Positions 1-47,462 of a stretch of 64,000 nucleotides of DNA are shown piece after piece; within the stretch, counting starts at the first letter, position 1; each line of letters starts with the position of its first letter. The notes under the pieces were generated by a model that was not told where the DNA came from, ran no database searches, and saw only the letters and a program-made list of their open reading frames with translations. The position numbers were made by a program, and so were the translations under genes. The stretch comes from Protoeuglena noctilucae (lineage: Eukaryota): the NCBI GenBank assembly GCA_958009085.1, contig OY253672.1, positions 372,001-436,000 of the forward strand, written 5' to 3'.

Positions 1-3000
1 CACGGACGTAGCCCTCCCTGCCCAGGTGCCCCATGCGGGCCACCAGCGGCCAGCACCGCGCCCACGGCTGCCGCATCGCGTCCGCCAGAGCACGCATGAC
101 CCCGTCCTCCCAGAACGCCACCGCCACCACCGCCGTACCCGCCGCCTCAAGCCGACACGCCACCTCGTACGCCACATTGCACGCGAGACCCTCTGCAGCC
201 AGCACCAATGCCTGCGCCAGCCCCGGCTCCCTCGCCACGGCTCGAACGCACGCGGCCACAAACACCTCCAGGCCCTCACGAGGGTCTGTTGCTTCTTGCG
301 GTAACTCCACCGTGTACACGTCCCGCTCCATCACCCCCCAGTCCGGCACCAGGCTCCCCAGGCCCATGCCAGCCGTCACACGCCAGCCCCCGCAGCCGCC
401 CCCGCTGACCGCGATGGCCTGGTCCCAACCGACCACGAGCACCGGCGCGCGCGCCTGCCCGCTCTTGGCTGCATGCACGCGCTGCAGCCTCGCGGCGACC
501 CCACCCGCAGCTCCCACGGCCCGGCCCGGCAGCTGCGACCCAGAAGTGCTCAGGTACCTCTGCGCTGCCTCAATGGCTGCCTCGTCGACCCCCATCTCCC
601 GCAGCTCCTTGGCCACTATCTGCCGGTCCGCCACCAACGCCAGGCGCGGCCCGGCGTCGCTGCCTGGGAGGCACTCAGACCATCCGAAGCTGAGCAGGTG
701 CGCCTTCATGACATTCGCCAGCACCGCCATGTCGGCCTCCTCCTGCCGCAGAAGCGAGAAGTGGTCCCCTGGGACGTCCACCACCTCCACTTGGTCGCAG
801 TACCTAAGCCAGCTGACGCCGTACATCTCAGGGCCCTGCCGCCCGTCCTGCACGTAGTCGCAGGCGCCACGCCTCGCCCCCCGGAAATACACCACGCGGC
901 CCTTGGAAAGACGCCCGGAGAAGGTGTGGCGACGCAGGTCGCTGATCTCCGATCCCTGGCGCACGGACCGGGTCACAAAGGCGATCTGCTCGATGCACTC
1001 CTCGAGCGTCAGGTTGGCGTTGCGCATGATCCTGGGAGACAGGGGTGGAAGAGGCTGTGAAGAAGGGGAGCAAGCATTCAGGGCGACAAGCATGCGGTCG
1101 TCACTTGCAAGGCGGCGTTACCCTGATGGTTGATGAGCGGCTAGTATGCACACAATTACTTGTCGCATCACATGCAGTCAACTGAGACAACCTCACGTTT
1201 GCTACCCATATAACGCCCCTCACCTCCACACGGGTGCGAAGAACTCCATTCGCTCCTGGAAGCTCATGCCTCGCCATTCCTCGGACTCCCTCGGGTGCGA
1301 GATGCCCGACCCCATGCCGATCGCGTCACGCCCCAATGCCCCCAATATCATCTCCACGAACTCCATGACGAGCTCACGAGTCACCTGGTCCGATTGCTCC
1401 AAGGGGCGCACCTGGTGCGGCAGTGGCGAGTCCATGACAAAGACGAGGCCCACGTCGTGACCCAAGCGCTCAAGCTGAATGGCCACCTCCAGAGCCACCA
1501 CGCCGCCGTACGAGTGGCCGCCCAGCAGGAAGGGACCCTGCGGCTGGACCTTGAGGATGTCTTGCACGTTGGCCCTTGCCAGGTCTGCCACGCAGAGATC
1601 GTCGTCCTTGTCAAGTACCAGAATGGGGCTGGAGCTCCACGCGAGCACGCGGGAGAAGGAGTAGTAGGCCGACTGGGCGTTGGCGACGCCGGGGGCGGCC
1701 AGGAACAGAGGCAGCACCGTCTGGCCCCTCAGGGTCTTGAGAAGGTCTGATGGAACAAGGTCCCCTGCCACCGGGCGAGTGCCCTCCCTGGGGGGCGCGG
1801 GGGCCGCGGGGACGGCTGCACTGCCGGGCTTGGATCGCCGGGAGGGCTGGTCAATTGTGGTGGCTTGCGACGGACCTACGACCTCTGCCGTGGCGCTGTC
1901 GAGGGCGCCCCTCGTGCCACCCTCGGCCTTCTCTTGGGCTGCACCAGAGGCCAGCTGGGCCTCGTGAGGCTCTGCGCTAGGGCCGGGGTCGTCGGGGCTA
2001 CCATCAAGGGCCTCTTGGTCCCCCATGCTGCAGAGCAGGGCGATGCTGTCTGCGATGAAAGTGGCGACCTCAGCAACTGTCTCCCAATCATACAACAGCG
2101 TCGGCGGCAGGTCCACTCCCAGGTCCTGGCTCAAGGCCTGCCGCAGCTGCATGCCTGCGCGTGAGTCGAGGCCCGCGCTCATCAGCGCTGCGTCGGTCGC
2201 GATGGGCTCGCCGGTCATGGCCGTCACGTGGCTCACGAGCAGACGGGACACCAGGGCCAGCAACTCGTCCCTGTCCATCGCCAGCAGCTCCAGCTGCCTG
2301 TCGCTCAGCTCCACGCCCAGCGACGAGCTCCCCGTGCGCGTGCGCGTGCGTATGCCTGCTTCCACAGCCGGGCTAGCAGCAGCGTCCGCGGTGACTGGCG
2401 CGTGCGAGGCAGGCTCCTCCGGCGCCGTATCGGATCGCCGGTGCGTCAGCGTGCCGCCTGCCACGCGGCCCTCGTCGATGGGTGGGGCAGTGCTCGCACG
2501 GCGCACGGTCCCAGCCACGCCCGGTCCCCCGCTGCGGTCTCCAAGGCCGCCGCTCGTCGCCGCATCTACCGTCCTCTCATCGACAGTTCCCCGCCTCGCG
2601 GGGGTCTCCGATCCGCTGCTGGTCCCCTCGCCACTGTCCGTATCCGCGCTGGCCCGTGACCCGACTGACCCCGCCTCGCACAGCGCCTCCATGTTGGCGG
2701 CAATGTGCTCCGCGATGCCCATCGGCGTCGGGAAGTCGTACAGCAAACTCGCGGGCAGGTCGACGTGCAGCTTGGCGCTCAGGCTCTGCCGGATCATCAT
2801 GCCCACCCGCGAGTCGATGCCTGAGTCAAGAAGCACTGTGTCAGGTTCCAAGGCATCCCCGGTCAGCTCCGTCACGGAATCCGATAGCAGGCCCAGCACG
2901 TGGTCCCGCAGGCGGGTCGGACCCATCGAGAGCAGCGCTGCGTGCTCTGGGGACACTGCCGGCCACGCCCTCCTTCCCGCAGCTGGCGAAGGGGCGGGTG

Positions 3001-6000
3001 GGCCAGCCGAGTCCCCAGCAGTGCGATCGCTCGGCCCCTTCCTTGGTCCAGAACCATTGATTTTCTCAAGTACTGGCTTCTCTTTGCCCTCGACAGCTTC
3101 CCATGTCCACGTGCTGCGCCACACCTGCCGCGTTCCAGTCTCCGACCCAAGGCTCGTGAATCCTGACACAGCTGCGCCGCAGAGACCCGAAGGGCGCGTC
3201 GGCGCTGCGTAGCGGGACGCGCCGGGGCTGGGGAAGCCCGGCAGGGGCACCGCAGCTGCCCAGAACCCTGGGCCCAGAGCATCTGGAACAGACACCCGCA
3301 TCGATGTTGGCCCCTGCAGCTTGAGCACGCTGACGACCTGCTGCTGAGCCTCCGCGGCGCCGTCACACACCGCGTCGTCCGGCACGGCGTCCACCTCGGC
3401 GCTGATGGCCCAGCCCTGGGGCCTGGCCCTGCGCATCGCAAGGGTGGGCGCTAGGCACGCGACAGCTGCACGTTGCGTACGCTCGACGCCCTCAAACGCC
3501 CCCGAGGCGATCGGAGCCCCCAGGAGCGCGCGGACGGTCCACGCGGGCCCTTCACTGGCCCCGTCAGTGACTGTCAGGGCCCCCGATGTCACGTCCAATC
3601 GCACCGTCACTGTGTTGTCAGCCGCGGCCCTTCTGGACGGCTTAGTGAGCTCCATGACTTGCACCCGCATGGACTCGACCAGCATAACCTCCCGACTCGA
3701 GGCCTGGTGCGTAGTGGACCCCAGGGCTGCGTCATCAATGGCTGCCGCCACGGCTGAGGACGCCAGGTTCATGAGAACGGATCCGGGCACCACTCTCGCC
3801 CCAGACATAAATACATGTGCAGCGTACACCAGGCTCGCGTCCGTGAGGCTGGTGGAGAAGGTGAGGCTGGCGAGAGAGGCGCTCTGGCAGAGCCGTGCGC
3901 CAGAGAGGATCCTTCCGTGCACCCATTTGCGCTGCCAGCGGAGCGAGCGATGCCCGGGCCACTCGCTGCCGTCCGAGATGCGGTGGCCCGCGCCCGCCTC
4001 GATCAGCACGTGGGCGTTGGTGCCCTGAGCCCCAAAGGAGCTCACCCCAAGCACCGATAGGTCGACCTGGCGGCACGCGGGCAGAGGGGCGCTCTGCCTG
4101 CCCGCCCACCCTGCGCCCGTGCTTAGGTAAGACGCCACATGCGGGCTGAGCGAGCGGAGGTGCGCGAACGGCGCCTTGCTTGCCAGGGATGCCGTCCTCA
4201 TGGCGTTAGCCAACGACTGAGCCCCTGACCCCGCCTCCCCGTGGCCCGTGAAGGCTTTGTGAGAGGTCAGCTGCAGCGGGACCGCCCCTGGGCCCATCGT
4301 GCGCCGCAGTATGGGCAGTGCCGCGGCCAACTCCGCCGCATCTCCCACAGCCACGCCATTGGAGTGCATGTGGAGCACATCCACCTCGGAGCCAGCCAGC
4401 CGCGCGCCCCGCAGCGCATCCCGCAGCAGGGCCTGCTGCGAGGGCGCGTGGGGCGCCGTGAGGGAGGAGCTGAGGCGGTTGGCGTTGACAGCCGATGCCA
4501 GCACACGGGCGCTGGATGCCACCACCGCCTGTCCCACCCCCGCATCCGCATTGGCCAGCACCAGTGCCGTGCAGTTCTCCCCGCGCGCGTAGCCGTCCGC
4601 CGCCGCGTCCAGCGACTTGCTGCGGCCGTCCGCAGCCAGCAGACCCGACAGTGCCACCGCAGCGCTCGCGTCCGGCGCCAGGCAAAGCAGCACCCCTCCC
4701 ACGATCGCGGCATCCACGGTCGCCCACCGCAGCGCCCCCGCCGCCATATGTGCCGCGACGAGGGAAGCCGCACACGCGGTGTCTACGCTGACCGTCTCGC
4801 CACCCAGGCCCAGGCAGAAGGCCACTCGGCCTGATGCGACACTGGCAGACGCGGATGTGAAGCCATACACCGACTTGGCGGCACCCGCTCTCACGCTGAC
4901 CGCCTCGTAGTCCCGCGTGGCGATGCCCACGTACACACCCACCCGCTCCGACGGCAGCTGGGGTGGAGCTACCCCATCGCCGGCCACCAATGGCGCAACG
5001 CGTGCCCGGGCGCCCTGGAGAGTGGCGGAGGCCTCCAGCAGCAGCAGGCGCTGCTGTGGGTCCATGAGCAGCGTTTCGATGTGGGTTAAGCGGAAGGCAG
5101 CGGCGTCAAACATCTCGACGTCTTGCAGGAACACACCATAGTGTGGGAGGAAGCCCAGCGGCATGTTGGAGTCTCCCTGCGTCTCCACATCCCACCTCGC
5201 AAGCGGCACACGGGTCGCCTGGTCTACTGTGCTGAAGACGTCCGGCGTTGATGTCCGGCCGGCCGGCCAGGGACCCGACATGGCCAGCACACACACGTCC
5301 CTCATGAGCACGTCGTCCTTCTGATCCCAGAAATCCACGCGAATGGCCGCGTTGGGCACCGTCCGCAGCTCGGTCGCCTGGGCGTGCAGGCCCTTGGCCG
5401 GCTTGGCATCCGCGTGACCGGGCCGGGCCATGTGATCCATCACATGACGAGCCACAGCAGCAATGGTGAGCTGCTCATTGGCTGAGGCGATGGGCAGCGC
5501 CACGCCGAACTCGTCCTGCACCCGCTGCTGCAGCTCCGCGGCCCCTAAGGAGTCCAGCCCCGCATCCAAGAGCGGGGCCTCGTCCGCGACCTCCTCCCCA
5601 AGCACCGCTTGTATGACGGACCGTACCGTGGCCAACACCTGACCAGCATCCGCGGCTGAGGCCTGGGGCGCGGGCATCGGCAGCGGCCCTGCCTCGCTGG
5701 GCGGTGCAGGGACCGACTCCCATGCAGCCTCTGCCATGGGCGGCTTCCTAGTAGTGCTGTGCACCACGCCGGCCAGCCACTCGGTCACGCCGGGGATGAC
5801 GTCCAGCCTGGAGCCAGCCGTCGTGCAAGTGCACGTGTGTGAGCCCGGGCCTTGCTGCTTGTGCCCGGGGCGCTGTGGCGGCGACCGCGTGCGCAGCATC
5901 ACATCCACAGCAGACACGCCATGACCCACCGCGTCTGTCTGGCTGCTAGTTCTCGCAAGCAAGGCAGACATGGCGAGGGCTGCGTCGGTGATTCCGAGCA

Positions 6001-9000
6001 GCGGAGAGCTCCCAAAGGCATCGTGTCCCGGCGACCCACCACGCTTGCCCAACTCTACCATCGCCATCGCTGCTACGGCATCACCGTCACTGTGGCGAGA
6101 GTGGACAGGGGCCACGAGCAGCGTTTGCTGCGATGAACGAGACCCCTCTGCGCTTGTGATAGTGGACCACGGGCGGCGCCTGGCCATCATGATGTGACTC
6201 TGGAGGAGCGTGCCTTTCACGTCTGACACCGTGAGCTGCCCATCTGAGACGCTGACGGCCACATCGCGCGTGGAGGGACCGGGTGCGTGTCCCAGGACTG
6301 CGCGGGACAGCGCCCCACGGACAGCGCTGCTTGTCACATCATCCGCACACATCGACTCCACCACAGCCGCCGCCGCGCTCAGCACTGCGCCTCCCAGCAA
6401 ACCCTTCCCGGCACTCCACAGTGCGTCCTTGAGTAAAACCCGGAAAGGCCCCGGCTGCGTGGTGCTCAAGACCCGGGACAGGTGCCACATGTCTGCGTGT
6501 GGGACCACGCTGGCCCTCGTGGCCCGCCAGGGCACGGTGGGTGTTTCTGACACCTCACGGTCCTCGCAGCGGCCGAGGATGGCGTGCGCCAGCGTGCCCT
6601 GGAAGGCAAAGGAGCTGACACCAACCGCAGTGGCAGCGCCGCTGGTGGGCATGGGCCCAGGCATGCGGGGTGCCGACACGCGGTGCCCAGCGCTGTCCAG
6701 GCTGCCCTGGATGTGCGGGTTGAGGGCGTGGAGGTGCAGGATAGGCAACGCAGTGCACAAGGTCAGCGTCCGCGTTGCGTGGAGGACGCCCAGGGCCCCC
6801 GCGGCCGTCTCCCCGTGGCCGATCCACGACTTGGCCGCCATCATGACGATCGGTAGGTGATTGGACGCACGGAAGGTGGCCATGACGGCGCCGACCTCGA
6901 CCGGGTCGCCCAGGGCCGTGCCTGTGCCGTGGGACTGCAGCGCTGCAACATGACCAGGGCCGACTCCGGCGTCACGCAAGGCGCCCTGAATGCAGGCGCT
7001 CTGGGAGGGCCCGTGCGGGGCCGTGAGGGACGAGGAGCGGCCGTCCTGAGCCACGCAGACACCCAGCACTCTGGCCAGGGGGGCCGCCTCTGTCGCAAGG
7101 GCGCCGTCAGCACCGTGCGTGGGTGAGGCCCGAGACGAGACATGATGCGGGGCTAGCTGTGCCGCATCAGCGCCACCGTCAGCGACCCGCGAGAGCAGGA
7201 ACACGACGCACCCCTCGCTGCGCACGTAGCCGTCCGCTGCCGCGTCGAACGTCTTGCACCGCCCGTCCGCTGCCAGCATCCCCGCCCTATGGAAAGCCAG
7301 GGTGGATCCCGGTGCAAGGAACAGCTGAACGCCCGCAGTGATGGAGGCAACAGAAGCGCCGCTGGCGACCTGAGCTGAAGAGAGCTGCAGTGCAACCAGG
7401 GATGCGGAACATGCGGTGTCGACCGCCATAGACGGCCCCTTGAGACCGAACGTGTACGACACCCTCCCTGCCGCCACGCTCAGCGCGCCCCCGGATGCCG
7501 TGAAAGGCCCAGGGGCAGAAAACGCGCTGGTCAGCGTGGCATACTCGCAGCTGCCGATGCCCACGTGTACGCTTGTGGCAGCAGGGCAGGGCCAGACGCG
7601 CGACGCCGTGAGGCACTCCAAAGTCAGTGAGAGCACCAAGTGTTGTTGTGGGTCGCAGTGCATGGCCTCTGCGATGCTCATGCCGAACATGGGAGCGTCG
7701 AAGACATCAAAGCCCTGCATAAAACTGCCGAAGCGAGGCAGGGGACCGTACGGGTGGGGGTCGTCCACGCCCCACCGCGTCGGCGGCACGGGCGTCACCG
7801 AGTCAGCCTGGCTGGGACGGCATTCTGGCGCTGACAGGGCGTCCCAAGGGACCACGTGAGCTGCGGCGACGATGGCCACGGTCCCTTGCGTTCCCCGCGC
7901 CAGCTCGTATACCCCAGCGGGCCTGGCAAGGGCGACAACGTTCATGTTCTCCAGTGATTGCACTGCCTGTGCGGTGGTCTGCCCCTCCTGGCTGGGCCCA
8001 CCGAGCTGCCCGTAGATGAGCTGCGCGATGTCCCCGGCTGTGGGGTGGTCCAGGACCAGCGTGGGCGGCAGATCGACTGAGAAGGTCGAGGATAGCGTCT
8101 GCCGCAGCTCCACAGCTCCCAAAGAGTCGATGCCGCTGGCCATGAGAGGCTCTGCGGCGTCGGGGCGGCTGCCCGTCAACTCCTCGACCTTGCTTTGCAC
8201 TGCCTGGAGCACATGATCGAATGGGATAGCATCTGCGGATCCTGAGGTCGATTCCATGCTTGGTCCCATGCCTGGGCGGTCATCGACTGGGATGGCCCCC
8301 GCAGCCACAGCGTTGTCGCCCTCTGCAGGGCTCGCCAGGCTCCCTGCGGCACGTGCCAGAGACCAGACATGCTCCGCCACCTCTGCCACCGTGGTGTAGT
8401 TGATGGCCAGCGTGGGCTCCAGTGGGACCCCGAAGCGCGACTGCAGCGACGCGCGGAGCTCCACGGCGCCCATGCTGTCAAGGCCAGAGGCCACCAGGGG
8501 CTCTGAGGGACCCAGGGGCCTCCCCACGAGGTCCGCCACGATGTCAGAAACGGCCGACAGCACCTCCTGCTGGCTCAGCTGGGGCACCGATTGCACCTGG
8601 CGCACCGTCGCCTGTCGTGCTGTCAACGTCGCCACGTGCGGCACAGCAGCCACCGCTTGGCTCGTCGATGGCTGGCGGACGCGGCAGATCTCGGATACCA
8701 AGTCGCGGTGTTCGGGCATAGCCCCACCCAGGCTCTCCGGCACCATCGGCGTCACAGCGACCGGGGAGTGCAGGACCATAGCACGATCGCACAGGCATCG
8801 GCGTAGCAAGTCTAGGCCCTGCGCGGGGTCCACCAGTCCCAGCCCGATCTTAGCCAAACGCTTCGCTGTGTGCGAGTCGCGAGCTGCCATACCGCCACCG
8901 GCCCAGCCGCCCCACTGAACAGCGATGGCGTGGACACCCGCAGATGCCAGTCGCTCGCTGTGGCTCTCCAAACGAGCATTGGCTGCCGCGTAGCACCCCT

Positions 9001-18000: not shown

Positions 18001-21000
18001 GACTGATATAGCGAGCCCGCTGCCAGTTGCGCCAGTGCCACTGCCCCTGACGCCGGCTCGCTGTGGCCCAGCCAGGATTTGCTAGCCACGGCCGTGATGG
18101 GCTGATGGGAGCCCTTGATCGTCGAAACGATCGCCCCGATCTCAATGGGGTCCCCAAGCGCAGTGCCGGTCCCGTGCAAATGCACTGTCGACACGTCTTG
18201 TGCCAGGGTGCCACCCTGGGCCAGAGCCGCCGCCATGCACTCCGCCTGGGCTCGGCCGTTGGGTGCCGTGAGCCCCGAGGACCGCCCGTCCTGATTCACT
18301 GCCGTTCCTGTCACCGCCAGCAGCGGGCGTGTGTCTGTGTAGCCGTGCGCTTGTGACGGCTGCTGCCCTGGCGTTGCAGATGAGGACCTCTGCCTGTCCG
18401 CGTGCAGGGGCACCAACAGCGTCGCGGCCACCGCCTCGGCGCGCACGTAGCCGTCCGCTGCGGCGTCGAGGGCCTTGCACCTCCCCTCGATGCTCAGCAT
18501 GCCCGCCGCCTCAAACATCGCCCCGCTCTGGGGTATCAACTGCGTCTCGCAGCCACCGCACAGGGCCGCCGTGGCCCTCCCGCGCAGAACGTCGGTGTGG
18601 GCGAGGGAGAAGGCGACGAGAGCCGACGAGCAGGCGGTGTCTGCGGTGATGGCGGGCCCCGTCAGGCCAAAGACATACGCCACACGACCCACCGAGACTG
18701 ACATCGAGGTCCCCTGTGCCGTGCACCCCCCAATCGGGGTAGGCGATAAGTAAATGGCCAGACGTCTATACTCATTCCACGATATCCCGTTATACACCCC
18801 CGCAGGCGTCCCTTTGAGACCGTGCCCCGCCACCATCTCCGCACACAGGTCGAGGAAGAGGCGCTGCTGGGGGTCCATGTTCAGTGCCTCCGAGGCGCCG
18901 ATGCCGTAGGGAGAAGGGTCGAATCGCTCAATGTCTGGAATGTATGCCCCGAAACGCCTTCGAATGCGGTCAGGTCCGGTTGCCAGAATCAGCTGGTCGG
19001 GGTCCCAACGGGAATAGGGAACGTGGTGAATGGCGTCTGGCAGATGCCCGGATGCCATCGCCCGCGCGAGGCCGCGCCCGACGGCGGGGAGGTGGGCGCC
19101 CGACGCAGCGATCGCCACGATGGGTGGCACGTGACCCTCGGAGGTCCCCAGGGGCCGGGGTGGGGGTGGGGTGGGGGTGGTGGGTTGCGGCACGCGTGGC
19201 ATCGGCGCGTTGTGCTCCTGTACAGTATCGGGCTGCTGCTGGGTTGCTTCTGCGAGGGTGGTGTGGATGAAGGCCGCCACCTCCGCCAGAGATGGGAAGT
19301 TGAAGACGAGAGTGGATGGCAGGGACATGTGCGTCTCTCGAGATAAGGCGTTGACGAATTCCACGGCGCTGAGGGAGTCCATCCCCGCGGAGAGGAGCGG
19401 GGCGTGGGGGTCTGGGGTCTCGCCGGTCACCTGAGAGGGGCGCAGAGAAGCAAATGCGTGAACACTCAATAAATGAAGAAAGCATAGCTGGATGAGGGTC
19501 ATGTACATGGTGATATCGCAGGGCAATGGAGGGGCTTTGATGTGAAGCAGTGCAATGCCATAAGACAAGCGCATTGCTAGTCTAATCATCACCCATACAC
19601 AGCAGCTCTGCTCTGTCTTAGTCACCTGCGTAAAGACCTTGGCGACGAGCGCATCCACGCGCTCCCTGGTCCACGCGGCCCTGCTCGGCGCATGGGCCCC
19701 TGCATCCGTCGCAAACGTTGACCCCTCCGCGTGTTGCAGAGACGCCTGCCCTGTCTTGTCATCCGATGCATCTGATGAGAACGTGACGTCGGAGAAGAGC
19801 ATCGGTCGATCAGTCATAGATTCGGCAAACACCGCCCAGTCAAAGGGATTGGCCACCACAGTGTGAGGGTCACGCTGGGCCAGGCCAGCGGTGGGCGGTG
19901 CCGCGAGCACACACAGCGTCTGCTGCAAGAGTCGTATCCCCTGATCGGGCGACAGCAGGCCCTGCCCCAGTCGCCTCAATCGCCTCTGCAGAGCGGCGTC
20001 AGAGGCCATCCCAGACCCCTCCCACGCCCCCCACTGCACCGACGATGCCGCGTGGCCCGACTGGGTCATGGCCTCCGCAGCGCCGTCCAGGGACAGGTTG
20101 GCCGCCACGTAAGGCGCCTGGCCGCGGTTGGCCAGCACAGCGGCGACCGATGAGAAGAGAACCACAGCGCGTGTGCCGCAGACGTGCACGGTGTCAGCCA
20201 CCGCATTTGCAACCGCAGCCTTAGACGCCCACACACGCCGATGGGACGCGACCGTGACGTTCCTGCACAGTGCGTCCTCGAGAACGCCCGCGGCGTGGAT
20301 CACAATGGGGGCAGCAGTGGTCGCGCCTGAGCCAAAGCCAGTGGCACCCTGCAGGGCTGAGGCGTCCAGGCCTCGGACCGTCACTGCTCCCGTGGACCGC
20401 GTCAGGCGTCGCAGAGACGCCGCGGCCTGCTTCGAGACGCCCTGCCACCTGCCGCTGCGTGAGATGAGGGTCACGTGCGCACGAGGCACGGACTGCATGA
20501 GGTGAGAGGTCACCGTCAGGCCCAGGGCCCCCGTGCCGCCGATGACGACAAACGAGCGTGCCTGCGAACAGGATGGAACATAGCATGATTCGAAGCAGTT
20601 AAAGATGCACCAGTCGAGCAGCATCATGGCCCTGCCTAGCGCAGCACTGGCTGTGGCAACGGCAGCGTTGGCAATGGTACGACCCGCACCCGCACGCTCA
20701 CCAAGGGAGGGAGTCGCCGTGAGCGCGACACGACGACCTTGCCCACGTGCTGCGCCTGCGAGAGTTGCCGCAGCGCCGCCACCACGTCACAGAAAGCGTG
20801 GCGGACCTGAGGAAGAGGCTCTGACCCGCAAGCGAGCCGCATCGACACTCGCGCCAGCATCTGCCCCAGCGCCGCGGGCGGCAGGAAGTCCAGTGCCACC
20901 ACCGAGTAGAGCACGTCCGGCCGCTCTCTCGCGACGCGCTGTGCGGCGTGTATGCCCCGCTTGCCGATCTCCACGAACCGCCCGCCCTGCGCCATGCCAG

Positions 21001-24000
21001 CTAGACTGGCCCCGACAAAGCCGGGGCTCGTGAGGCTGTTGAGCACCACGGTGGGTGGACTGAACGCCAGCGCCTCCGTAAACGACGTCTCGCGCGAGGA
21101 GACGGCCGCACGCGCGCCCCACCGCCCTCGTAGCAATGCACGCTTGCCGGGCGACCCCGCCGTGCACACCACCCTCGCCCCCATGTCCGAAGCAGCCTGC
21201 ACGGTGGACATACCCACGCCGCCCGCGGCCGCGTGCACGAGCACGGTGTCGGCGGGTCCCATCTGGGCCGAGCAGTGCAGAGCCAAGTCCACAGTCGCAA
21301 GCACGGTCGGCACTGCCGCTGCCGCCTCCATCGCCACGTGCGGTGGGACGGGCGCCACCGCCCGCGTATCGACCCGGACGACGTCCGCGAGGGCCCCAGA
21401 CGCGATACCAAAGACCGCAGACCCCGGAATCAGCCCCATGGCAATGGCCTTGTCCCCCGCCCGCATCACCACCCCCGCGAAGTCGCCGCCCGGGTCCCCC
21501 GGATCGCCTTTGAACATATCAAGCATTGATAACACGTTTAGAACGTCCTTGAAGTTGAGTCCCACCGCCTGGACAGCCACCTCGACCTCCCAAGGGTGGA
21601 GGGCAGTGGTCGTGTTCACCAGTCGCGGTCGCAGATTGTCAAAGGTGCCCCGCGGCTGGGGAACCAGTCGGAAACCAACAAGCGGGGGCTCAAGGGCGGA
21701 CTGCGCCAGCACGCTGTGGGAGGTGGCGTGGGGGTGCAGGGCGTGGATGTCGAGGCGAGAGGGCGGGGCGAGGGATGTGACGTCTATGTGAGGTGACTGA
21801 GGAGAGAAGAAGAAGCGTGTGGGTGCTAGGGACTCGCCCATGGCGCTCTGAAGCATCCCGAGATCGGGGGCGGGCACTGGGGAAGCTGTACTGCCGGGCG
21901 CACTGACGGCAACGTCAGTGACAGTGCCAGAGTGCGGACTGAGGAGCGCATGGGCAGCGGCGAGTGCGGAGGGGCAGTTCCCTCCCTTCCACTGCAGACG
22001 AGCTCTGCTACGGCCCACGCCTGCATCCACCGTCACCCTGCCGTGGCTGGCGCAGAGGTGACGGTCCGGATGGGGTGCGCTTGGGGCGGGCGTGGCTGCG
22101 ACGTTGCGCAGGATGTCGTAGGCAATGCGACGATCCTCGGCCCGGGTCCTCGCGGACGCGCGCATGGGGGCCGTCGTGACTCCCGCACCCGAGCACTCGG
22201 AGCCCCTCCTCATGACACGCAGGTCTGACACGTGCCGACTGGCATCCGCGTCGCCAGTGCGCTCCCTGGGCAGCCACGTGGCCCACGACTCCTCCGCAGA
22301 CACGAACTCGTTCTTGCTGCGCCAGTCCCGCTCCCAGCAGTCCGCCACGCGCATTGCACCAAACGACACCGGCACAAGCACCGATATCGGCGGCCGCCCC
22401 GACACACCCAGCTGCAAGGCGGCGTCCAGGGCAGGTGCCACGAGCTCCGCCGCGGACAGCAAACTCTCCACGGCGCCCATGACTGGGCCCGGGGCCGCGG
22501 GAGCTGAAGGTCGTGAGGCAGCGAGCGGGCTCGCGCTAAGCGCAGTCGTCGCGCAATGCAAAGCCCCGCCGACGACGGCGCAGCGCCCGGTGGCGTGGGT
22601 CGTGGGCGCATCGCCCGACGCGTCGTGCGAGAGTGCGACGATGCCGGACTCTGGATGCACGGTGCAGCACAGGAGCGTCTGTCCCGCATGGCTCGCATCG
22701 CGCAGGATGAGAGGGGCGGAGATGACGAAGGAGGCGATCGCCCGGGGCTCCTCAATATCTGTGAAGACGTCCAGAGCTGTGCCGCACGCGGCAGCGGATG
22801 CCTCGACCATCGCCGCCCCCGGGAGCAGGGCCCTGCCCAGCACGACGTGGTCGCGCATGCAGGCCAAGCTGGGGTCCGAGAGGCGGCAGAAGACGACGAC
22901 GGCGCGGTCGGCAAGAGCGGAGCCTGACAGGGCCCTCGGACCCAGCACCGACGCACGACGCCAGATCCACCACGGCCGTCGTTGCCACGCCAATGGCGCA
23001 GAAGCCAGCGGGCCTGCCGCCTTGTCCACTGCTGTGTCAGGCACGTGCAATATCGCGTGGGCGTTGGTGCCCTGGAACGCGAACGCACTTACGGAGCCCC
23101 ACACGCCGTGGCTGTCAGGCACAGGCAAAGGCGCCACGGTGCGGGGTGCTGACATGGACGGCGGCGCGCCCCCACGCCCGTGGCTCCGGAGCGCAGCGGA
23201 GACGTAGGGGTTGAGGGCCACCAGGTGGTGCAGGGGCAGACCCTGCCTGCGGTCCTGCAGAGCCCGCGTGAGGGTCGCCAGTCCCACGGCACCTGCGGCC
23301 GGCTCCGTGTGGCCCAGAGAGGCCTTCGCTGAGGTCATCGCGAGCGGAGGGGCGGCCCGGGCGCCGGCCGGGGCAGCGGGGCGCAGGGCGGCCATCGCTG
23401 CAGAGACCTCGATCGGGTCACCCAGGGCAGTGCCTGTGCCATGCATCTGCAGCGCGGCGATGGCGGCGCCCGGCGCGTCGCGCAGAGCGCCGCGGATCGC
23501 GTCCTGCTGCGCGGGGCCGCTCGGGGCGGTGAGCGACGAAGAGCGGCCGTCTTGGTTGACGTGAACGGCGGCGACGATGGGGGCGTCGTCACCCGTTGCC
23601 TGGGGTGAGGAATGAGGAGTGAGAGTGAGGTCTAGGTGGGTAGGGGCAGCGTATGCAGTGGTAGCTGTTGGGGCACAACAGGCTGACTTGCAACAAACAG
23701 AGTGGTAATGCGACAGGGCAGTCACTGTTACCATCGCGGGACACAAAGCCTTAGCATGCGTGCACAAGAGGATGGAGCGGCTCGCATTGAGTATGGACTC
23801 GCACCTCGCAGAAGAGGATTGCCACTGCCGCCTCGGATCGCACGTAGCCGTCGGCCGTGGCATCCAGGGTCTTGCACCGGCCCACGTCAGAGAGCATGCC
23901 CGCCTGGGATCATTTGAAAGCAAGAGGATATCAGTCACTCTTTGATATACCACAGCTCTCTTACGTGACCCTGACCCTTTCCATCAATCTTGTCAGTTGC

Positions 24001-27000
24001 AGCGACGGCCGTCCATGCACGTGCCAATTGTAGCCATCATTGCCAACATGACGCACCGTCAGACCGAGCAGCACAAGTCACCTGGTGGCAGACGAAAGTC
24101 CAGGAAGGCACCAGGCACAGGTTGACTCCGAGCACGCCAGCAGCCCCGACGTCCGCCCTTTGGATGGCTGCCCACCCACACGCGGCCGCCACCAAAGACG
24201 ATGAGCAAGCGGTGTCGATGGTCATGGCGGGGCCGCGGAGGTTGAATGCGTACGCGATGCGGCCGGACGCCACGCTCAGGTGGGCCCCTGTGGCGTAGTA
24301 AGGCGACGCGGCGTGCATGCGAGCCTCGCAAGTCATGCGGGCGTACTCGAGCTGAGAGGTGCCCACATAGACCCCCGCTGGGCCCGGCCGTCCCTGCACC
24401 GCCGCCCATGCCTCGGCAAAGGCGATCAGGGCGAGGCGCTGCTGGGGGTCCATGAGGGTGGCCTCGACGGGGGAAATGCCAAACGCAGCGGCGTCAAAAG
24501 CATCTGCAGCAGACACGTAGCCCCTGCGAGCGGATTGGAGAGGGACAAGGATGGCTTGGCTGTGTATGTGTATGGACAAAGTGTCAGGGCAGAGATCACA
24601 AGCGGCGCTGTCGACCGAGACCATCTTTACCGAATACAGCCCATAAGTAGCCCGTTCCAGCATCCCTCATACTGCTAGCAATCACAGCCTCACCCGAACC
24701 GGACCATGTCGTGATCGTCAGGGTCCCATCGCTCAAAGGGCGTCTTGCTAATTGCGTCTTCGTGCGCGTTGACGTCCGCCGCAGTGGCACCGCCAGGCAA
24801 GAGGGCAGACAGGGCGCGCAGGGCCACCACACGCGCATGTGACGACGGCACAGCCCCGACCGAGAGCCCCGCAGTGAGCTGAGGCAGCGTGGCTGGCACA
24901 GCGGCGGTGGCGGTGGTATTAGCGGCTACGCCATCTGTGCCCGGCAGGGCCAGCCCCTGTGCCTGCGCCTCTCGGATGACCAGGGCGGCGATGTAGTTGA
25001 TGGTGGGGCAGTCGAAGATGAGCGTCGGGGGCAGCGACAGGCCCAGGGCGTCCTCCAGTCGGTCCACGAGCACTGCAATGAGGGGGTGTCGGTGGGCATT
25101 GATCAAAATTGACCAACCCACTGTTTAAGCGACATAACCAGTAACCAACAAACCCCATGAAAGCTCCGAACCATTCGCAGTGCTCTCGCACTCACTGGTG
25201 GCGGAGGATGAGTCCACGCCTGCCTCCATCAGCGGCCGATCGTCAGAAACGGCCTCTCCGTACAACGCCTCCGAAACCACCTGGCCCACCAGGGCCCTGA
25301 CACGAGCCACAGTGCCCCTGTCGCTGACACTTGGCGCGGGCGACACGGTGCCCGTCCCCGTCACAGCCCCCGCCGTCTGCGTTGCGCCGTGGGCGGCTGA
25401 ATCGTCGCCGGTCAGCGTGGCGGCATACGCAGCGATCGCGTCGAGGGTGGGGTGGTCAAAGGCCAGCGTGGCGGGTAGCTCCACGCCCAGCGATTCGGAC
25501 AGACGCTCGGCGAACTGCACAGACAGCGATGAGTCGATGCCGGCGTCCATCAGAGAGGCATTGGGGTTGATCTGCGACCCCACCAGCTCCTTGGCTACCT
25601 CCGCCGCCACCCGGAGCACCCTCGCCCGGGCGCCGTTGCTAGCGGCACCCGACTTGGTGTGGGTGACGCTCGGCACCCCAGCCTGCGCCTGGGCAACTGC
25701 CACCGGCTGTGACGGGGTGTTGACAGAGCTGGTGTCACAGATGACGTAGGCGACGGGGGGCAGGGAGGCGAGGGCCTCGGTGAGCAGGTATGCCACTGCA
25801 CCCTCGGACAGGTCCGCGCTTGCGTGGATTGCCACGACAGACCCGGGCACATCGATGGCCGACAGCGAGATGAGCGACGGGTCGCGGGGATCGGTGCTGG
25901 CGGGAAGCAGCACAAGGAGCGCCGGGCTGGCGAGGCCGTCGTGGGCGTCGCGCGTAGCAGCGGCGGCCGCTGCCAGCCTGGTGGCTGAGTCGGGGCCGGT
26001 GCTGACGACCACGTGGGTCATACCCGGCAGGAAGCACGGCACACGGGTCGCAGAGACATGGAACATCCCCGCGCCTACCACAGACGCCACCTGATCCGCC
26101 AAACGACTGGCCTGGGGGTATGGGAATGAGAAACCGTGTTTGTGTCTCGTGCAGCCGTGTGTGGGAACGAGAGGTGATTACCTAGCATGTATCGCAACTG
26201 TTGATAGCAGCCATGATCTGCTTGCATGGAAAGCGGAAATCCCCCTCACCCAGTCGGACGGTGTGTCGCTTGACCCCGCTGCCTCCCTGCGCAAGTGACG
26301 CCGCGTCCGCTCCTCCGACAGCACCGCCTGCAGCGTGACCTTGACCTCTGCCTTCTTGACCTTACCAGAACCGGTCTTCGGCAGGCTCCGCGCGAAATGG
26401 ACGCCGGCGGGGACCTTGTAGGGCGCCAGCTGGGCCCGGCAGTGGCGAAGGAGGTCCATCGGCCCAGGGGCTTCGGGGCTCAGGCGCATCTCTGGGCGCA
26501 GCACCACCACGGCGCGGACCTGGGAGAAATGTCGATGAATGATGCGGATGTCATGTCTAAGCGGTGCAGGCGCAAAGCGGCCACAAGGGTGCGACTGCCG
26601 GGCAGCACCGCAAGTGTGCCCCGCCCGGCGCTCGTCAGTTTGGCTATCCCCACAACGCTCACACCCACACCCTGCCCTGCGCTCGCCTGTTCGCCCATGA
26701 GAGACTCCGGCACTCCGACGACGGCTGCCTCCAGGACAGCAGGGTGCGCCTGCAGCACGCGTTCCACCTCCGAGCTGTACACGTTCTCTCCCCCGACCAG
26801 CACCATGTCCTTGGCTCTGTCCACGACATGCAGATAGCCCTCTGGGGTGACGCGGGCCAGGTCACCGGTGCGGAAGAAGCCGTCTGGGGTGAAGCACGAT
26901 GCGTTGACCTCGGGGGAGGCGCCCGCGTAGCCACTGAAGACTGCGATGGGGGTGGTTGGGTTGGGAGTTGGCTCAGGCAGTGGCTAAGGTGTCGAGGTGA

Positions 27001-29071
27001 GGTAGGCGGCGATGTGAGGGACGTGCGGTGCATCGGAGCGGCAGCCGCCGCGACTCTCGTACATGTTTCTCGCCCCTGTGTTGGTGTTGCCACCCATGCC
27101 AGCACATGCACACCCGCGTCCCTCACCAGTCGGCCCCTTGATGACAATCTCGCCGACCGCGACCCCGTCCGGCACCACGTCTTGGTCCTGCTCGTCGATC
27201 ACGCGGATGTCCATGTCGGTGAACGGCCGCCCCGACGATGCCACGAGCGACAGGTCCCCAGCCCCAGGGGCGGGCGAGTCGACGTTCGCGGGGTCGTCCG
27301 GGTCGGTCAGAAGGGACATGGCGATCTTCCCGCACGCCTCAGTCATGCCGTAGCTGACGAAGACCTCGCAGCCGAACAGCGCAATGGCGGCGGCCACCAC
27401 CGCCGGGGACTGCATGGAGCCCCCGCAGGACACCAGGCGCAGGGAGGAGAGGTCGAATGCGATGGCCAAGGGGTGCATGACCATGAGGGTGAGCATCGTG
27501 GAGGCCACATTGGTGACCGTCACGCCCTCGCGCTCCATCAACGCCAGCGCGTCGGCCGCGGTGAAGGAGCGGAGGATGGCGTGGCGGCCGCCGTGGAACG
27601 TCACTGAGAGAAAGGAGCTAAGCATAAGATGACAGGATGCTGCCAGGCCCAGGCATGTGTGGTCGCAACGCATGGGTGCGTCGACCATCTCTCACAGGCC
27701 AGCGCCACAGGCAGCCAGACACAAATGCATCGCTCTCTCCCAACCCCTCGCCTGTGTAGACGGCAAAGACGTCCACGAGGTGGAACATGGGCGCGATGTG
27801 GCCCCACACGTCGCCCTCGTGGATGCGGTGTTCGAGCGACGCCGACAGCGCGTGCCGCACCACTATGCGGTGGCTCAGCATCACCGCCTTGGGCAGGCCC
27901 GTCGTGCCGCTCGTGAAGTACAGGTGGAAGCCGTCCTGCGGAGGTAACAGACAAGGGATGTGGACGCTGCATGGCAAAGCACGTGCGTGGCACAGCGGGC
28001 GCAAGGCTGCCAGCGGCCCAAGGGACCCGGGCGGGCAACGGTGCTTTGCCCATTCATAGCTAGCTACAAGTCGTGGCTGGGTTTCTGGCACGGGTTGTCA
28101 CCTCAGAGAGGGCGGCTGCCCCGGGGGACGTCAACCCCTCACGGGCGCGCAGGTCGGCCACCGCTTGGCAGAGCGCTTCCCGGTTCGGGTAATCCGCGCG
28201 AACGCTCTGAAGAAAGGAGGCGAACGCAAGCTGCTCAGCAGGGTGGCCGTGGGACGGGGGCGCGCTCGTGGGCACCGACGAGTTGCCACGGTCCTCCAGG
28301 TCAAGCCACAGGAAGAGGCGGACGTGCAGGTCCTGTACGGCTGCGACCGCAGACGAGAGCTGCGGGGGAGGGGGAGGGGCGGGAGCGCGCGACCGGTGGG
28401 CGCTTCGCGTGATACTTTGGCTGTTGGCTCAGCGCGTGCCCGCCACCCCCTCGCCTGGGCTTCGAAGCGGGTCTCGGCGATCAGGACAGCCGGATCGGAC
28501 ACGTTCATGACGTGAGCCAGCTCGGCCGGCTGCAGGTGCGTGTTGACGTTCACGACGCAGAGGTGCAGGGCCGCGCAGGCGAAGTGCGCCGCCATGACCT
28601 CCCACGCGTTGCGCATCATGACAACCACGCGATCGCCCCGATGCAGACCCTGCGGAGAAGGCGTGGCGAAGCTAGCATAGGAGGCGGGGTGGGGATTTGT
28701 CCGCGAAGGGAGTGCATCTTTCAGGGCAGCAGCATCGCACCTGCCGCGCCAGCGCCAGCGCCAGGGCGCACGAGGCCTCCTGGAACTCCCCATAGGTCTG
28801 GAGAACATCGCCATCCACGACCGCGAGCTTCGACGCCCGGCCGCGTGCCCCTGCCTCGAGCAGCTGCGCGGGCGGGGAAGGGAGCGCATGTTGGGTTCGA
28901 GGGAAGCTTCCATCGGCTCCGTGATGCCTCGAGCAATGCCGGATGGGAAGCGCCGCCCTGATTGATGAGCCATGATGGCGCCACACGGGCGAGAAACAAG
29001 CGCCAGAGCCCCACCTCCCAGACGTCGGCAGGGGACGCCGATTCCATTCCTAGTGATGCTATGCGAGACAT
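1..29071 (-). CDS. Giant multi-exon AT-less modular type I polyketide synthase (3' end beyond window)
   Basis: Phase-compatible splice junctions join ORF pieces from MSRIASLGMESASPADVWE (29071) through an adenylation domain, 5 KS (DTAC...H...GH), DH, 3 ER, 3 KR, 12 ACP (GxDS) and TE (GHSYG). About 15 introns; the last exon (1031 to <1) is open at the window edge. One +1 frameshift at ~10070. Confidence 0.93.
700..1720 (-). other. Thioesterase domain (split by intron 1223-1032)
   Basis: PLFLAAPG, QPQGPFLLGGHSYGG, VMDS, and after splicing VEVVDVPGDHFSLL, giving a complete Ser/Asp/His set. Confidence 0.88.
2050..5300 (-). other. PKS module 5: atypical KS-DH-ACP x2
   Basis: DTACAAS, HSNGV in place of HGTGT, GHGE; HVFMSGARVVP; ACPs GIDSRVG (~2810) and GLDSRAG (~2160). 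Confidence 0.8.
5440..7890 (-). other. PKS module 4: KS-(degenerate DH-sized region)-ACP, no KR/ER
   Basis: DTACSAS/HGTGT/GHGE; the following ~250 aa lack HxxxGxxxxP; GLDSLG ACP at ~5550. Confidence 0.75.
8010..13140 (-). other. PKS module 3: KS-DH-ER-KR-ACP x2 (frameshift inside ER)
   Basis: DTACSSS/HGTGT/GHGE; HCVSGEGIVP; GINFRDVL and QAAAGG[+1]VG; GGTGYLG, YAAAN; GLDSMG and GIDSLG. Confidence 0.88.
13240..19130 (-). other. PKS module 2: KS-DH-ER-KR-ACP x4
   Basis: DTACSSA/HGTGT/GHSE; HAVSGRALFP; GINFRDVL and HAATGGVG; GGTGYLG, YAAAN; four GLDSLG ACPs (~14385, 14035, 13665, 13350). Confidence 0.9.
19270..24830 (-). other. PKS module 1: KS-DH-ER-KR-ACP
   Basis: DTACSSS/HGTGT/GHTE; HVVLGRALLP; GLNFKDVL and HAAAGGVG; GGTGALG, HAAGVLED, YVAAN; GMDSL. 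Confidence 0.88.
24980..25630 (-). other. Two loading ACP domains
   Basis: LMDAGIDSSLSVQF...FDHPT and LMEAGVDSSSAT|MLVDRL...FDCPT (second split by an intron at ~25195-25073). Confidence 0.85.
26300..29071 (-). other. PKS loading domain: acyl-CoA ligase-type adenylation domain (8 exons)
   Basis: YFTSGTTGLPK, APMFH, SYGMTE, FFRTGDL, DRAKDMVLVGGENVYSSEVE and LPKTGSGK motifs after splicing. Confidence 0.9.
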
Positions 29072-29540
29072 CGAAGACGGGCACCGGGCTGTCGACCCCG
29101 GGGGACCCGGAAATCGGCGCGCCTAGGCCACGAGGCGATCCGAGGGGTCACGGGGCTTGCCAGGCTTCCCGGGCGACTTGCATCGAGCGGCGCTTTGAAG
29201 AATCTATATTAAGGGCTATTCGCGATGGACGAGCGGCGAGAGGACGAGGCGCTGGGCCATTCCCTCGAGTTTTTCGACACGAGCAAAAACCGACACGAAT
29301 GCAACGCAGGGAGTACCAATGTATACAAACGATGCGATGGGGCGCCAAGGCTGGTCGCCTCGTTTCAGGGCCCGGCCGGCTGTCAAACTCGGTTTGCCCG
29401 CGCTCCCCAAAAAAACCTCCAAACCCTCGCCTGCCACCCCCGATCGACGAAGTGTCGCGAGCACGACCAACCTTGACGCCCCGAGGGTCAGGACCAAAAC
29501 CCGGTCGTTTGGCTGATCGGGAAGGAAGAAGGGGCCCAAG

Positions 29541-36282: not shown

Positions 36283-36584
36283 GGCCCACCCCCGGTGCTT
36301 TTGCGGCCGAAAACCGGCGACGGGACCCTCCTGTCAACGGCGGCGCGGAAGCCAGGGCCACCGTGAATCGCGAAGGAACGCGGGGGACGGCGCTGGCGAC
36401 CCGAGAGGTGAGCTTCGCCGGCCGGGTCGTGCCCTGCCCGAAACGAGGCCCACTCTTTCGATTCTAATGGCAGGATTGGCCCTCCTTGCATCAATTGGCT
36501 AGCTTGGCGTTGCACCTGACGAGCTCTGTAGAACGGAGACTCCCAGGCCCTCCCGGCACCATCCTAAATTCCCTCGGTGGCGAG

Positions 36585-37480
36585 ATGGGCAGCCTGGCCG
36601 TCATCACCGGCGCGAACAAGGGCATTGGGCTCGTCCTGGCCCGGCACCTGCGCAACAAGGGCTACAGCGTCGTTGCCTCATGCCGCACGGCCTCGCACGA
36701 GCTCGACAACATCGGCAAGGTCGTCGAGGGCGTGGACGTCCGGTGCGTGCGAGGGGACGAGCTCGGGCGTCGTTTGCGGGTTTGCATTCCGCCGCAGGAC
36801 GCGTGCCGGCGCTTCGATCGCCTGCCAGGGACCCCGCGGGGGTCAACCGCCTCCGTGAGGCTGTGGGCGATGCCCAGGTGAACCTCCTCTTCTGCAACGC
36901 GGGCCTGATCGAGGCCGAGGAGGGCGGCTCTCTCGACGACATGGTGCGCGCCATCCCCGCCATTCGGGAGGAGTTCGAGACGAACGCCATGGGGCCCCTG
37001 CGCACCGTGCACGCCCTCAACTCCAACCTCAAGCCGGGGGCCTCCAAGGTCATCGTCATTGGCTCGTCCACGGGGTCGGTCGCCAAGGCCCAGTCCGGCT
37101 CGTTCATGCCCGGCACGCTGGGCTACTCGTGCACCAAGGCCGCCGAACACATGGTGGCGGTGCACATGAGCAAGGCCCTGGCCGAGCGCAACATCCCTCT
37201 GGGCATTGTCCACCCGGGGACGGTGCTCACCGACAACGCCCTCGAGTACCACCACCAGGACGAACAGGCGAGAGCGGGGCGACGGGCGACAGGCGGGGGC
37301 GAGCCGTGTGCTTGGGACGGCGCTTTATGGGGGGCCCTGCGCTTGCAGCTGGTCAAGGAGAAGGCGACGGACACCGACGAGAGCGTGGACGCCATCATTG
37401 ACATCGCCGAGCACAAGGTCAACATCGAGAACACGGGGACCTTCTGGGATGCTCGGGGCAAGGAGCCGCGGCCCTTCTAG
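36585..37480 (+). CDS. Short-chain dehydrogenase/reductase (CsgA/C-factor-like), 3 exons
   Basis: ITGANKGIG, CNAG, YSCTK (YxxxK), HPGTVLTD, TGTFWD. Confidence 0.9.
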
Positions 37481-46510: not shown

Positions 46511-47395
46511 TGCGGAGAAAACACACTAAAGCAGGCCGTCGCGATTCAGCTCGGGGCGCGGTTCGCGTGCTGGGCGGGTTGAATGCTGTCAGCAGCTCAT
46601 GTCGACCCCTGATCCCCGCTGCGCGGAGCGCAATGCACATCGCCAAGCTCGCGATGGAGCGGCAATATGAGCACGTGCCGAGGAAAGGCTCGCGGTGTCG
46701 CGGAACGTGCGAAGCGGGCTCGGGACAAGTCCTCGAGTGTTCGAAGTCACCCAGCATCCCGCGCGGGTCCAGTTGCGCGGGAGACGGGTTGGATCGTTGC
46801 ACCCTTACCCACAAAATCACATGCAGCGCGGCAGGGTACCAGTGCACCGTTTGCCGCTGGGACATCACCTTACGGGGGCCGCAGAGGGGTACGCCGCGCC
46901 ATACGGCCCAACTCCTGACGCTGGGTCAGCGAAGCCGCGTCCCACGGCGCTCATGTTTGAGTCTCAGTCAAACCCAGTAATCATCCCTGCAAGGCTTGAG
47001 GAATTGCCTTTCCCTTTGTTGCTGGACTGGCACGGAGCCACAGTGCCCCGCGGGACTGGAGCGCGGGCTAGCTCAGAACTCTGGCAAGCATCGCAGATGC
47101 AGCGTCCCACCACGCGCTGCAGGACAGTCATTGCTGACGGCGGTGCTGGTACCACTTTCTGACTGCCCAGTCTGCGAACAGGTGAAGCCAGTTGGGCCGA
47201 AAAAGTGATACTCATATGCAGGGACGGAGACAAGGTTGCGTTGGACGCCTGAAAATGCATTCGTGAGCTGCAGGTGCCGTCCTTTGGGTGGGGTGGCCCT
47301 AGCGCCGGAAAAAGCCGACAATCCTTGCTCTTTCACACATCAGGACGCGACATCGACCAAAAAGTCGCGTCGGAGATCCCCTCGACAGCAGACGA

Positions 47396-47456: not shown

Positions 47457-47462
47457 ATCCCC

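Follow-up and report, generated by a model that had tools for sequence, protein, structure and literature searches.

Almost all of the approximately 30 noniterative polyketide synthases (PKSs) of algae covered in the cited parts of Shelest et al. (2015, PMC4661987) lack an integrated acyltransferase (AT). Table S2 of that study gives CrePKS1 of Chlamydomonas reinhardtii as ligase-ACP3-(KS-DH-ER-KR-ACPn)...-KS-ACP-KS-ACP-TE and classes it as trans-AT, where ACP stands for acyl carrier protein, KS for ketosynthase, DH for dehydratase, ER for enoylreductase, KR for ketoreductase and TE for thioesterase. CvaPKS1 of Chlorella variabilis is listed there with the same start and end and also as trans-AT, and the domain string of MicPKS1 likewise follows this plan and is classed as trans-AT (PMC4661987). 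The terminal KS motifs are HANGT in CrePKS1 and HSNGT in CvaPKS1, as given in supplementary file 1 of the same work. Passages on CrePKS1 in PMC6912462 and PMC12633428 describe it as needed for maturation of the zygospore wall and for desiccation survival, in agreement with the first-pass annotation of the DNA studied here, which had tied Chlamydomonas PKS1 to zygospore maturation. For the product of the chlorophyte PKS1-type family, no paper was found in the literature searched, which is weak evidence with most subscription journals lying outside that literature. Here, we describe a gene in a 64,000-nucleotide stretch of Protoeuglena noctilucae contig OY253672.1 (positions 372,001 to 436,000, hereafter the window). 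The visible part of the gene occupies positions 1..29071 on the minus strand, and it is probably a nuclear gene of a marine alga for a PKS1-type multimodular type I PKS that has no integrated AT. Both the gene and its domain anatomy are real; what it represents is a compact, five-module version of a known green-algal design.

Domain architecture and exon structure

Domains were mapped with Pfam on 43 overlapping 360-residue slices of the model protein, along with exon scans and motif positions. The families found on the PKS frames are AMP-binding, AMP-binding_C, PP-binding, ketoacyl-synt (N and C), PKS_DH_N, ADH_N/ADH_zinc_N, KR and Thioesterase. They are arranged in the order Lig, approximately 150 residues, ACP, ACP; KS-DH-ER-KR-ACP; KS-DH-ER-KR-ACP4; KS-DH-ER-KR-ACP2; KS-(DH-like)-ACP; and KS(HSNGV)-(DH-like)-ACP2-TE-(TE-like?). 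The ligase, five KS domains (on one co-linear exon chain), three DH-ER-KR sets, 12 ACPs and TE listed in the first-pass annotation match the Pfam and motif counts exactly. The ACP serine motif is present in 12 of 12 ACPs, and we also found the KR Tyr, the ER GGVG, the DH HxxxGxxxxP and the TE Ser/His motifs, with the KS Cys/His/His set complete in that all five KS domains retain the Cys and both His residues. The map agrees with the earlier description of the gene, in which a multimodular type I PKS without AT domains starts from an acyl ligase at its N terminus and carries a TE.

All features of the gene lie on the minus strand. The AMP-dependent ligase (AMP-binding and AMP-binding_C; 26352..28863) is encoded by exons 2-8. 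The NCBIfam model NF004837 (long-chain-fatty-acid--CoA ligase) is the best match for four of its five pieces and the third for the fifth, with all scores below the cut-off because each piece is a single exon. Between the ligase and the first ACP, a stretch of approximately 150 residues (25605-26072) has no Pfam match and no obvious motif. Two loading ACPs (24960..25628) follow, with the motifs GIDSS and GVDSS. Module 1 consists of KS1 (23033..24908, interrupted by introns 10-12), DH1 (22049..23002, with HVVLGRALLP), ER1 (20729..21592), KR1 (20019..20552) and an ACP split by intron 14 (19248..19667). Module 2 has KS2 (17805..19166), DH2 (16806..17777), ER2 (15384..16241), KR2 (14811..15350) and four ACPs in tandem (13221..14480), and module 3 has KS3 (11850..13196), DH3 (10896..11822), ER3 (9584..10445, its halves in different frames), KR3 (8900..9511) and two ACPs (7997..8572). 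In module 4, KS4 (6557..7933) is followed by a degenerate DH-like region of approximately 300 residues that has lost the catalytic His (5633..6556) and by one ACP (5423..5647). Module 5 begins with the last KS, KS5 (3986..5320), which carries HSNGV for HGTGT; approximately 370 residues separate it from the two ACPs of the module (2036..2908, with GIDSR and GLDSR), and within them lies a second DH-like region (3284..3952), whose His is offset by one residue. The TE (700..1705) has its GHSYGG motif at 1502-1519 and PGDHF at 758-772, is split by intron 15 (1032-1223), and is followed by a C-terminal region (2..658) that has no Pfam match and reads AAEGLA at the GxSxG position.

This plan shares with CrePKS1 and CvaPKS1, in the published domain strings and motifs by which those two proteins were compared, the N-terminal ligase and the ACPs after it, the run of KS-DH-ER-KR-ACPn modules, the ACP multiplets and the lack of an integrated AT, as well as the two KR-less KS-ACP end modules, the H[AS]NG[TV] motif of the last KS and the TE. 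The first-pass annotation had taken the architecture as new and had named an identical one already described as what would overturn that claim; the same architecture is in print for both proteins in Table S2 of PMC4661987, and the novelty falls. As a discovery the gene is thus ordinary, since modules without an AT, a ligase at the start and a TE at the end have all been published.

The window has a G+C content of 63-73%, and its minus strand contains three very long stop-free frames, at 1223-10264 (3014 codons), 9237-20786 (3850 codons) and 20639-23983 (1115 codons), whose translations are plainly PKS sequence. To build the exon model, the junctions were read in three frames, and GT/GC...AG pairs that keep the frame open were searched around them. 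The resulting gene begins with an ATG at 29071, is open at the left end of the window, and has 16 exons that form a chain of 8,908 codons without a stop, given that one G of a run of nine is skipped. Exon 1 (29015..29071), which starts at the first ATG after an in-frame stop, is the weakest exon call. It is followed by exons 2 (28741..28863), 3 (28455..28649), 4 (28102..28359), 5 (27752..27935, with the TSGTTG motif), 6 (27127..27603), 7 (26687..26940) and 8 (26250..26519, with the ligase end, GKVKK). Exon 9 (25196..26111) encodes the approximately 150 unassigned residues, ACP-L1 and the first half of ACP-L2; exon 10 (24694..25072) encodes the second half of ACP-L2 and the start of KS1, which continues through exon 11 (24082..24523, with DTACSSS) and exon 12 (23805..23903). 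Exon 13 (20702..23599), the acceptor of which is uncertain, carries the C-terminal part of KS1, DH1 and ER1, and exon 14 (19626..20561) carries KR1 and the start of the ACP. At 18.2 kb, exon 15 (1224..19430) runs from the module 1 ACP through the N-terminal half of the TE, and exon 16 (1..1031) encodes the C-terminal half of the TE and then a serine-less region that continues past the window.

The 15 introns are 91-205 nt long with a G+C content of 0.48-0.76. Twelve are of the GT-AG class, mostly with GTGAG or GTGCG donors, and the three that follow exon 3 (28360-28454), exon 5 (27604-27751) and exon 7 (26520-26686) are GC-AG introns with the donor GCGAG. Intron 14 (19431-19625) is in frame and stop-free and is therefore hidden within the 3850-codon frame. 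The junction between exons 15 and 16 (FAPVWR/IMRN) is confirmed by the relative P0125, in which the same stretch is unbroken. Candidates for further in-frame introns in the large exons had exon-like G+C contents (0.55-0.76, nearly all at least 0.66) and lay inside domains, and none was adopted; a profile of G+C at third codon positions (GC3), tried as an intron detector, was not discriminating.

Absence of an acyltransferase and relatives of the gene

The AT profile PF00698 matched none of the 43 overlapping slices of the model protein at E ≤ 0.1. Our own AT profile, built from 80 post-KS segments drawn at random from 458 such segments with a GHSxG...xxHS pattern in 171 retrieved proteins, recovers an AT in 179 of the 237 sequences searched. 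On the model protein this profile returned nothing at E ≤ 10, so that the check for an AT inside the modules gave no match by either route, and among the 920 six-frame open reading frames (ORFs) of at least 40 residues in the whole window its best value was E = 0.57. Among the relatives from algae or EukProt, 0 of 19 had an AT by the same profile, which did find three in Besnoitia, used as an apicomplexan control. The spacing of the domains points the same way: the gap between the KS and DH envelopes in the gene is 7-11 residues, and 67-74 residues separate the GTNAH motif from the His of the DH, which bears out the earlier statement that each KS runs into its DH with no room for an AT. The median KS-DH gap is 11 residues at 27 junctions in 16 named green-algal proteins, compared with 428.5 residues at 232 junctions in AT-bearing proteins. 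In the remainder of the window (29.1-64 kb), no AT or phosphopantetheinyl transferase (PPTase) family was matched at E ≤ 1e-4 among 215 ORFs of at least 100 residues, and the claim that the window holds neither enzyme stands.

A cis AT could have escaped these searches if it were highly divergent or encoded in the unseen 3′ part of the gene, for which the unassigned stretches of approximately 150 residues (between ligase and ACP) and at least 230 residues (after the TE) leave places, as do the approximately 610 further residues by which the gene models P0127 (Pedinophyceae) and P0032 (EukProt label Tetstr1) continue past the equivalent of the window end. We regard this as extremely improbable, however, since neither Pfam nor our own profile with its filters off gives a match, every KS-DH gap is 7-11 residues, and the tails of the relatives carry no AT or Pfam AT entry, that of P0127 having TE-like GxGxG stretches as judged by eye.

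The best named matches are all from green algae (Trebouxia, Pedinophyceae, Micractinium, Myrmecia, Monoraphidium, Sobl393, Bathycoccus, Chlamydomonas eustigma and Parachlorella), with 31-44% identity over parts of the query, and none lists PF00698. Over the portion from KS5 to the TE, Trebouxia sp. C0006, Tetstr1 and Pedinophyceae match best. P0127 of Pedinophyceae sp. YPF-701 is collinear with KS4...ACP-KS5...ACP-TE and the region that follows at 37-46% identity, and P0126 of Trebouxia sp. C0006 matches the TE region at 58%, both being gene models of other species that may be fragments. The PKS stretch is present in four runs of one organism, in marine metagenome runs and in marine metatranscriptome runs. 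The host is a marine alga and, judged by the relatives of the gene, most likely a green one.

A FastTree of 112 KS rows was made from the five KS domains of the window, 42 from 16 named algal proteins, 30 of 563 from cis-AT proteins, 30 of 130 from unnamed AT-less proteins and five from Besnoitia. The window KS domains do not cluster together. KS1 groups with the first KS of ligase-bearing proteins of Tetradesmus (as its label reads), Trebouxia and Tetrabaena (99), KS5 groups with the last KS of P0127 (HSNGT), which is its sister, and with P0131 (HANGT) (97), and KS1, KS3 and KS5 each fall in a small supported set that has green-algal members. For every one of the five, the nearest rows are AT-less and either algal or unnamed, and the 30 sampled cis-AT KS domains form nearly one group, with two changes needed.

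Reading frame, transcripts, 3′ end and end modules

Several points weigh against the reading of this gene as an intact PKS1-type assembly line. The KS tree is a quick one: it bears out the algal half of the phylogeny proposed in the first-pass annotation, in that the window domains group with green-algal AT-less KS domains, and it is without rows for CrePKS1, CvaPKS1, bacterial trans-AT PKSs or fatty acid synthases (FASs). In addition, read as it stands, the sequence does not code for a single polypeptide. Nine consecutive G residues (G9; 10069..10077, minus strand) shift the frame within the GGVG motif of ER3; there is no intron between the 3850- and 3014-codon frames, the change is a +1 frameshift in this run, and a run of eight would restore GGVG. 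ER3 thus gives ...RVLVQAAAGG in the first frame and continues as VGLAAV...CTAGSAGKRALL in the second, and both pieces align without gaps to ER1 and ER2. In a Logan contig of run X1, which comes from the same organism, the interval 10019-10101 is 83 letters long, just as it is in the window, so that the extra G may be real; this interval was masked as a repeat in the contig comparison, and X1 may be the sample behind the window assembly. From the independent metagenome run X5, no piece is listed between 9981 and 10336.

If the extra G is real, the gene would be broken in this strain, either as a very recent pseudogene or as a gene with two products, the first running from the ligase through the N-terminal half of ER3 plus approximately 280 junk residues and the second, if made, being the downstream piece. 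Beyond the shift itself and the lack of a net indel over the interval in the X1 assembly, the gene call of the collection, P0004 (3797 residues), likewise reads into the junk frame. We nevertheless consider a broken gene unlikely. After the shift the frame stays open for 3014 codons and carries well-conserved ER, KR, ACP, KS and TE domains, whereas the longest frame in the whole window other than the three giant ones has only 756 codons, so that any break would have to be a very recent one or else an error; the X1 result, moreover, comes from what is possibly the source sample of the window at a site masked as a repeat, and X5 has no listed piece there. For the single spliced path of approximately 8,900 residues claimed at first, the exon model gives a close 8,908 codons, but the frame is broken at the G run and the gene is open at the window end.

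Marine RNA-library contigs match the PKS gene, and the contigs aligned to the window show no differing letters and no splice joints. One contig (run X9, 23276-23694) covers 95 nt of the predicted intron 12 (23600-23694), for which unspliced RNA, DNA carry-over or a wrong acceptor are possible explanations; an alternative in-phase acceptor for this intron lies near 23686. Another (run X10, 29193-29347) lies 120-280 nt upstream of the predicted ATG and could be 5′ untranslated region, an adjoining transcript or DNA carry-over. Together, these two contigs make DNA carry-over or unspliced RNA possible and, with no splice joint seen and one contig extending into intron 12, transcription and splicing of the PKS stay predicted. 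Three bins (18132-18795, 19460-20787 and 24772-25435) are without RNA-library cover, which says nothing either way. Separately, a Pro/Thr-rich low-complexity linker before KS2 (19157-19186) has a word depth far above that of the flanking sequence, both in X1 and in the RNA run X9; contigs are interrupted at this spot, some have an extra G behind 19167, and the sequence is probably shared with other loci.

The 3′ end of the gene lies beyond the window. At base 1 the frame of exon 16 has not yet closed, which leaves the protein incomplete in length and at its C terminus, and the relative P0124 (45% identity) continues 52 residues past the window end. A scan of metagenome contigs with the exon 16 protein, aimed at the missing 3′ end, gave 55 pattern matches, none of them a relative, and a protein search with exon 16 found P0124 and P0125 as the only relatives, with the longer product of the window itself not among the matches. 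The TE is not the terminal part of the protein, as had been supposed, since at least 230 residues follow it. With GHSYGG in exon 15 and PGDHF in exon 16, the TE is complete before this region of at least 230 residues, which is without a nucleophile serine. BLASTP of the N-terminal half of the TE against the post-TE region gave no significant match; an Atlas match of the region, to be taken as a lead only, is to thioesterase clusters at 0.90 with 157 shared features. Judged from its sequence, the region may be TE-like. In the tail of P0127 after its TE (residues approximately 2100-2781), we observe by eye two more stretches that resemble a TE but have Gly where the nucleophile Ser would be (GIGQGG and GVGPGG), suggesting that serine-less TE-like repeats may be a trait of the family. 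Table S2 of Shelest et al. (2015, PMC4661987) lists a "TE2" for MccPKS1.

Modules 4 and 5 have no KR and no ER in the Pfam slices. A DH profile, for which 150 DH domains were taken from the retrieved proteins, matches the post-KS5 region with an i-E of 4e-07 and the orthologous region of P0127 with 2e-08, but the post-KS4 region with only 0.006. When the five regions are aligned, the Asp is invariant, the post-KS4 region lacks the His and the Pro, and the His of the post-KS5 region is offset by one residue. Searched against PDB sequences, neither the post-KS4 nor the post-KS5 region gave a match below E = 0.08.

In the mechanism that we propose, the fatty-acid-CoA-ligase-like domain would adenylate a carboxylic acid, probably a fatty acid, and load it onto the first ACPs. 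Every module would be charged by a free-standing malonyl-CoA:ACP transacylase and the 12 ACPs primed by a PPTase, both of them encoded elsewhere. Three modules would each add one fully reduced C2 unit and the two KR-less end modules two unreduced C2 units, giving a 3,5-dioxoacyl thioester, from which the TE would release a 3,5-dioxoacyl product or its pyrone by hydrolysis or lactonization. The trans-AT and the PPTase are assumed parts of this scheme, and its starter and release chemistry we infer only. The term self-priming used in the first-pass annotation is apt for the built-in starter ligase; the PPTase and the malonyl-AT must come from elsewhere.

Given the HSNGV motif of KS5 and the odd DH-like regions, chain extension by the last module or the last two is also not certain. 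The last one or two KS domains might instead serve transfer or gatekeeping, and the product would then be a saturated acid of the starter plus three (or four) C2 units, made by what is in effect a fatty-acid-elongating line. HSNGV replaces HGTGT in KS5, modules 4 and 5 lack KR and ER, their DH-like regions lack the canonical His/Q(H) pair, and a terminal non-elongating KS has been described for other chlorophyte PKSs in the cited parts of Shelest et al. (2015, PMC4661987). On the other hand, KS4 and KS5 keep the Cys and both His residues, and the same source distinguishes terminal KS domains of the HANGT type, which keep Cys and His and mix with canonical KS domains, from a true KS0 clade in which the His is replaced by Ser. 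Conservation of the KS-ACP-KS-ACP-TE end from Chlamydomonas to this alga further argues that the end modules are used. We therefore judge non-elongating end modules to be distinctly unlikely and retain the scheme in which both extend the chain.

Surroundings and comparison with known systems

The rest of the window holds genes for SDHA, ribosomal protein L24, a short-chain dehydrogenase (SDR), Arf, glycosyl hydrolase family 32 (GH32), YGGT, BT1, a PCI-domain protein and DUF924, and the earlier description of housekeeping surroundings fits SDHA, L24, Arf, GH32, YGGT, BT1 and PCI. The SDR gene (36468-37477, plus strand) lies 7 kb upstream of the PKS with SDHA and L24 between them, and there is no evidence of a functional link between the SDR gene and the PKS. 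The GH32 gene (47253-49596, plus strand) is of the invertase or fructanase type and has several exons, in an organism whose DNA occurs in marine metagenome runs. Long open frames of 504-620 residues with no Pfam match occur at 44145-46004 (minus strand) and 60328-62361 (both strands); with a G+C content of 0.70-0.73, the richest in the window, these may be genes or composition artefacts.

The homology of the gene with CrePKS1, the one member for which a role in a resistant wall is known, makes a toxin less likely as its product than a lipid-like building block for such a wall or for an envelope. In land plants, the sporopollenin route uses ACOS5 and then PKSA/PKSB (LAP6/LAP5), which are hydroxyalkyl α-pyrone synthases. 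The similarity to ACOS5 and PKSA/PKSB is one of analogous logic only, namely a ligase-activated fatty acid, two unreduced malonyl units and a wall-polymer precursor; the plant PKSA/PKSB are type III PKSs and are unrelated to the type I assembly line described here. Published abstracts state that the plant sporopollenin pathway is absent from algae. By analogy with the plant route, the conserved end of the PKS1 type, by which we mean the two KR-less modules, the degenerate DH-like domains, the H[AS]NG KS, the TE and at least one serine-less TE-like domain, might be the assembly-line counterpart of the plant acyl-CoA synthetase and hydroxyalkyl-pyrone synthase. It would take a ligase-loaded, partly elongated fatty acid as its substrate and make a 3,5-dioxoacyl or alkyl-α-pyrone wall unit, with the DH-like domains acting as holders in the manner of product-template domains. 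We offer this idea as a long shot. Were it true, the five-module version, less than half of CrePKS1 by module count, would make the product of the family reachable by heterologous expression.

Iterative type I FASs and highly reducing PKSs, which have a single module and an integrated (malonyl) acyltransferase, are not matched by a gene with five modules and no AT. Bacterial trans-AT PKSs of the bacillaene or pederin type carry a conserved flanking or docking subdomain after each KS and have a dedicated trans-AT gene within their cluster. With these enzymes the gene shares AT-less modules, ACP multiplets and, as proposed here, dependence on an iteratively used free-standing AT. Unlike in them, the KS abuts the DH within 7-11 residues and hence no flanking or docking subdomain follows it, with Pfam KAsynt_C_assoc matching over only approximately profile positions 20-63 of 111 and below the cut-off; the 64-kb window has no AT gene, and the gene is nuclear, intron-bearing and unclustered. 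Algal KS clades are separate from bacterial KS domains in the cited parts of Shelest et al. (2015, PMC4661987).

The closest likeness is to CrePKS1 and CvaPKS1, from which the gene nevertheless differs in several respects. There are three reducing modules here compared with eight full KS-DH-ER-KR modules and one KS-KR module in CrePKS1, five KS domains compared with 11, and two loading ACPs compared with three in CrePKS1, the third of which sits in that part of the plan where a stretch without an assigned domain is found here. Module 5 with its two ACPs, the serine-less region after the TE and the marine host set the gene apart from both proteins, as do the DH-like remnants in both end modules, none of which appears in the entries for CrePKS1 and CvaPKS1 in Table S2. 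What is new at this locus is thus a compact member of the family, the DH-like remnants in its end modules, the serine-less post-TE region and the ER3 frameshift. With five KS domains instead of 11, it is a more practical object than CrePKS1 for expression, domain assays and product discovery.

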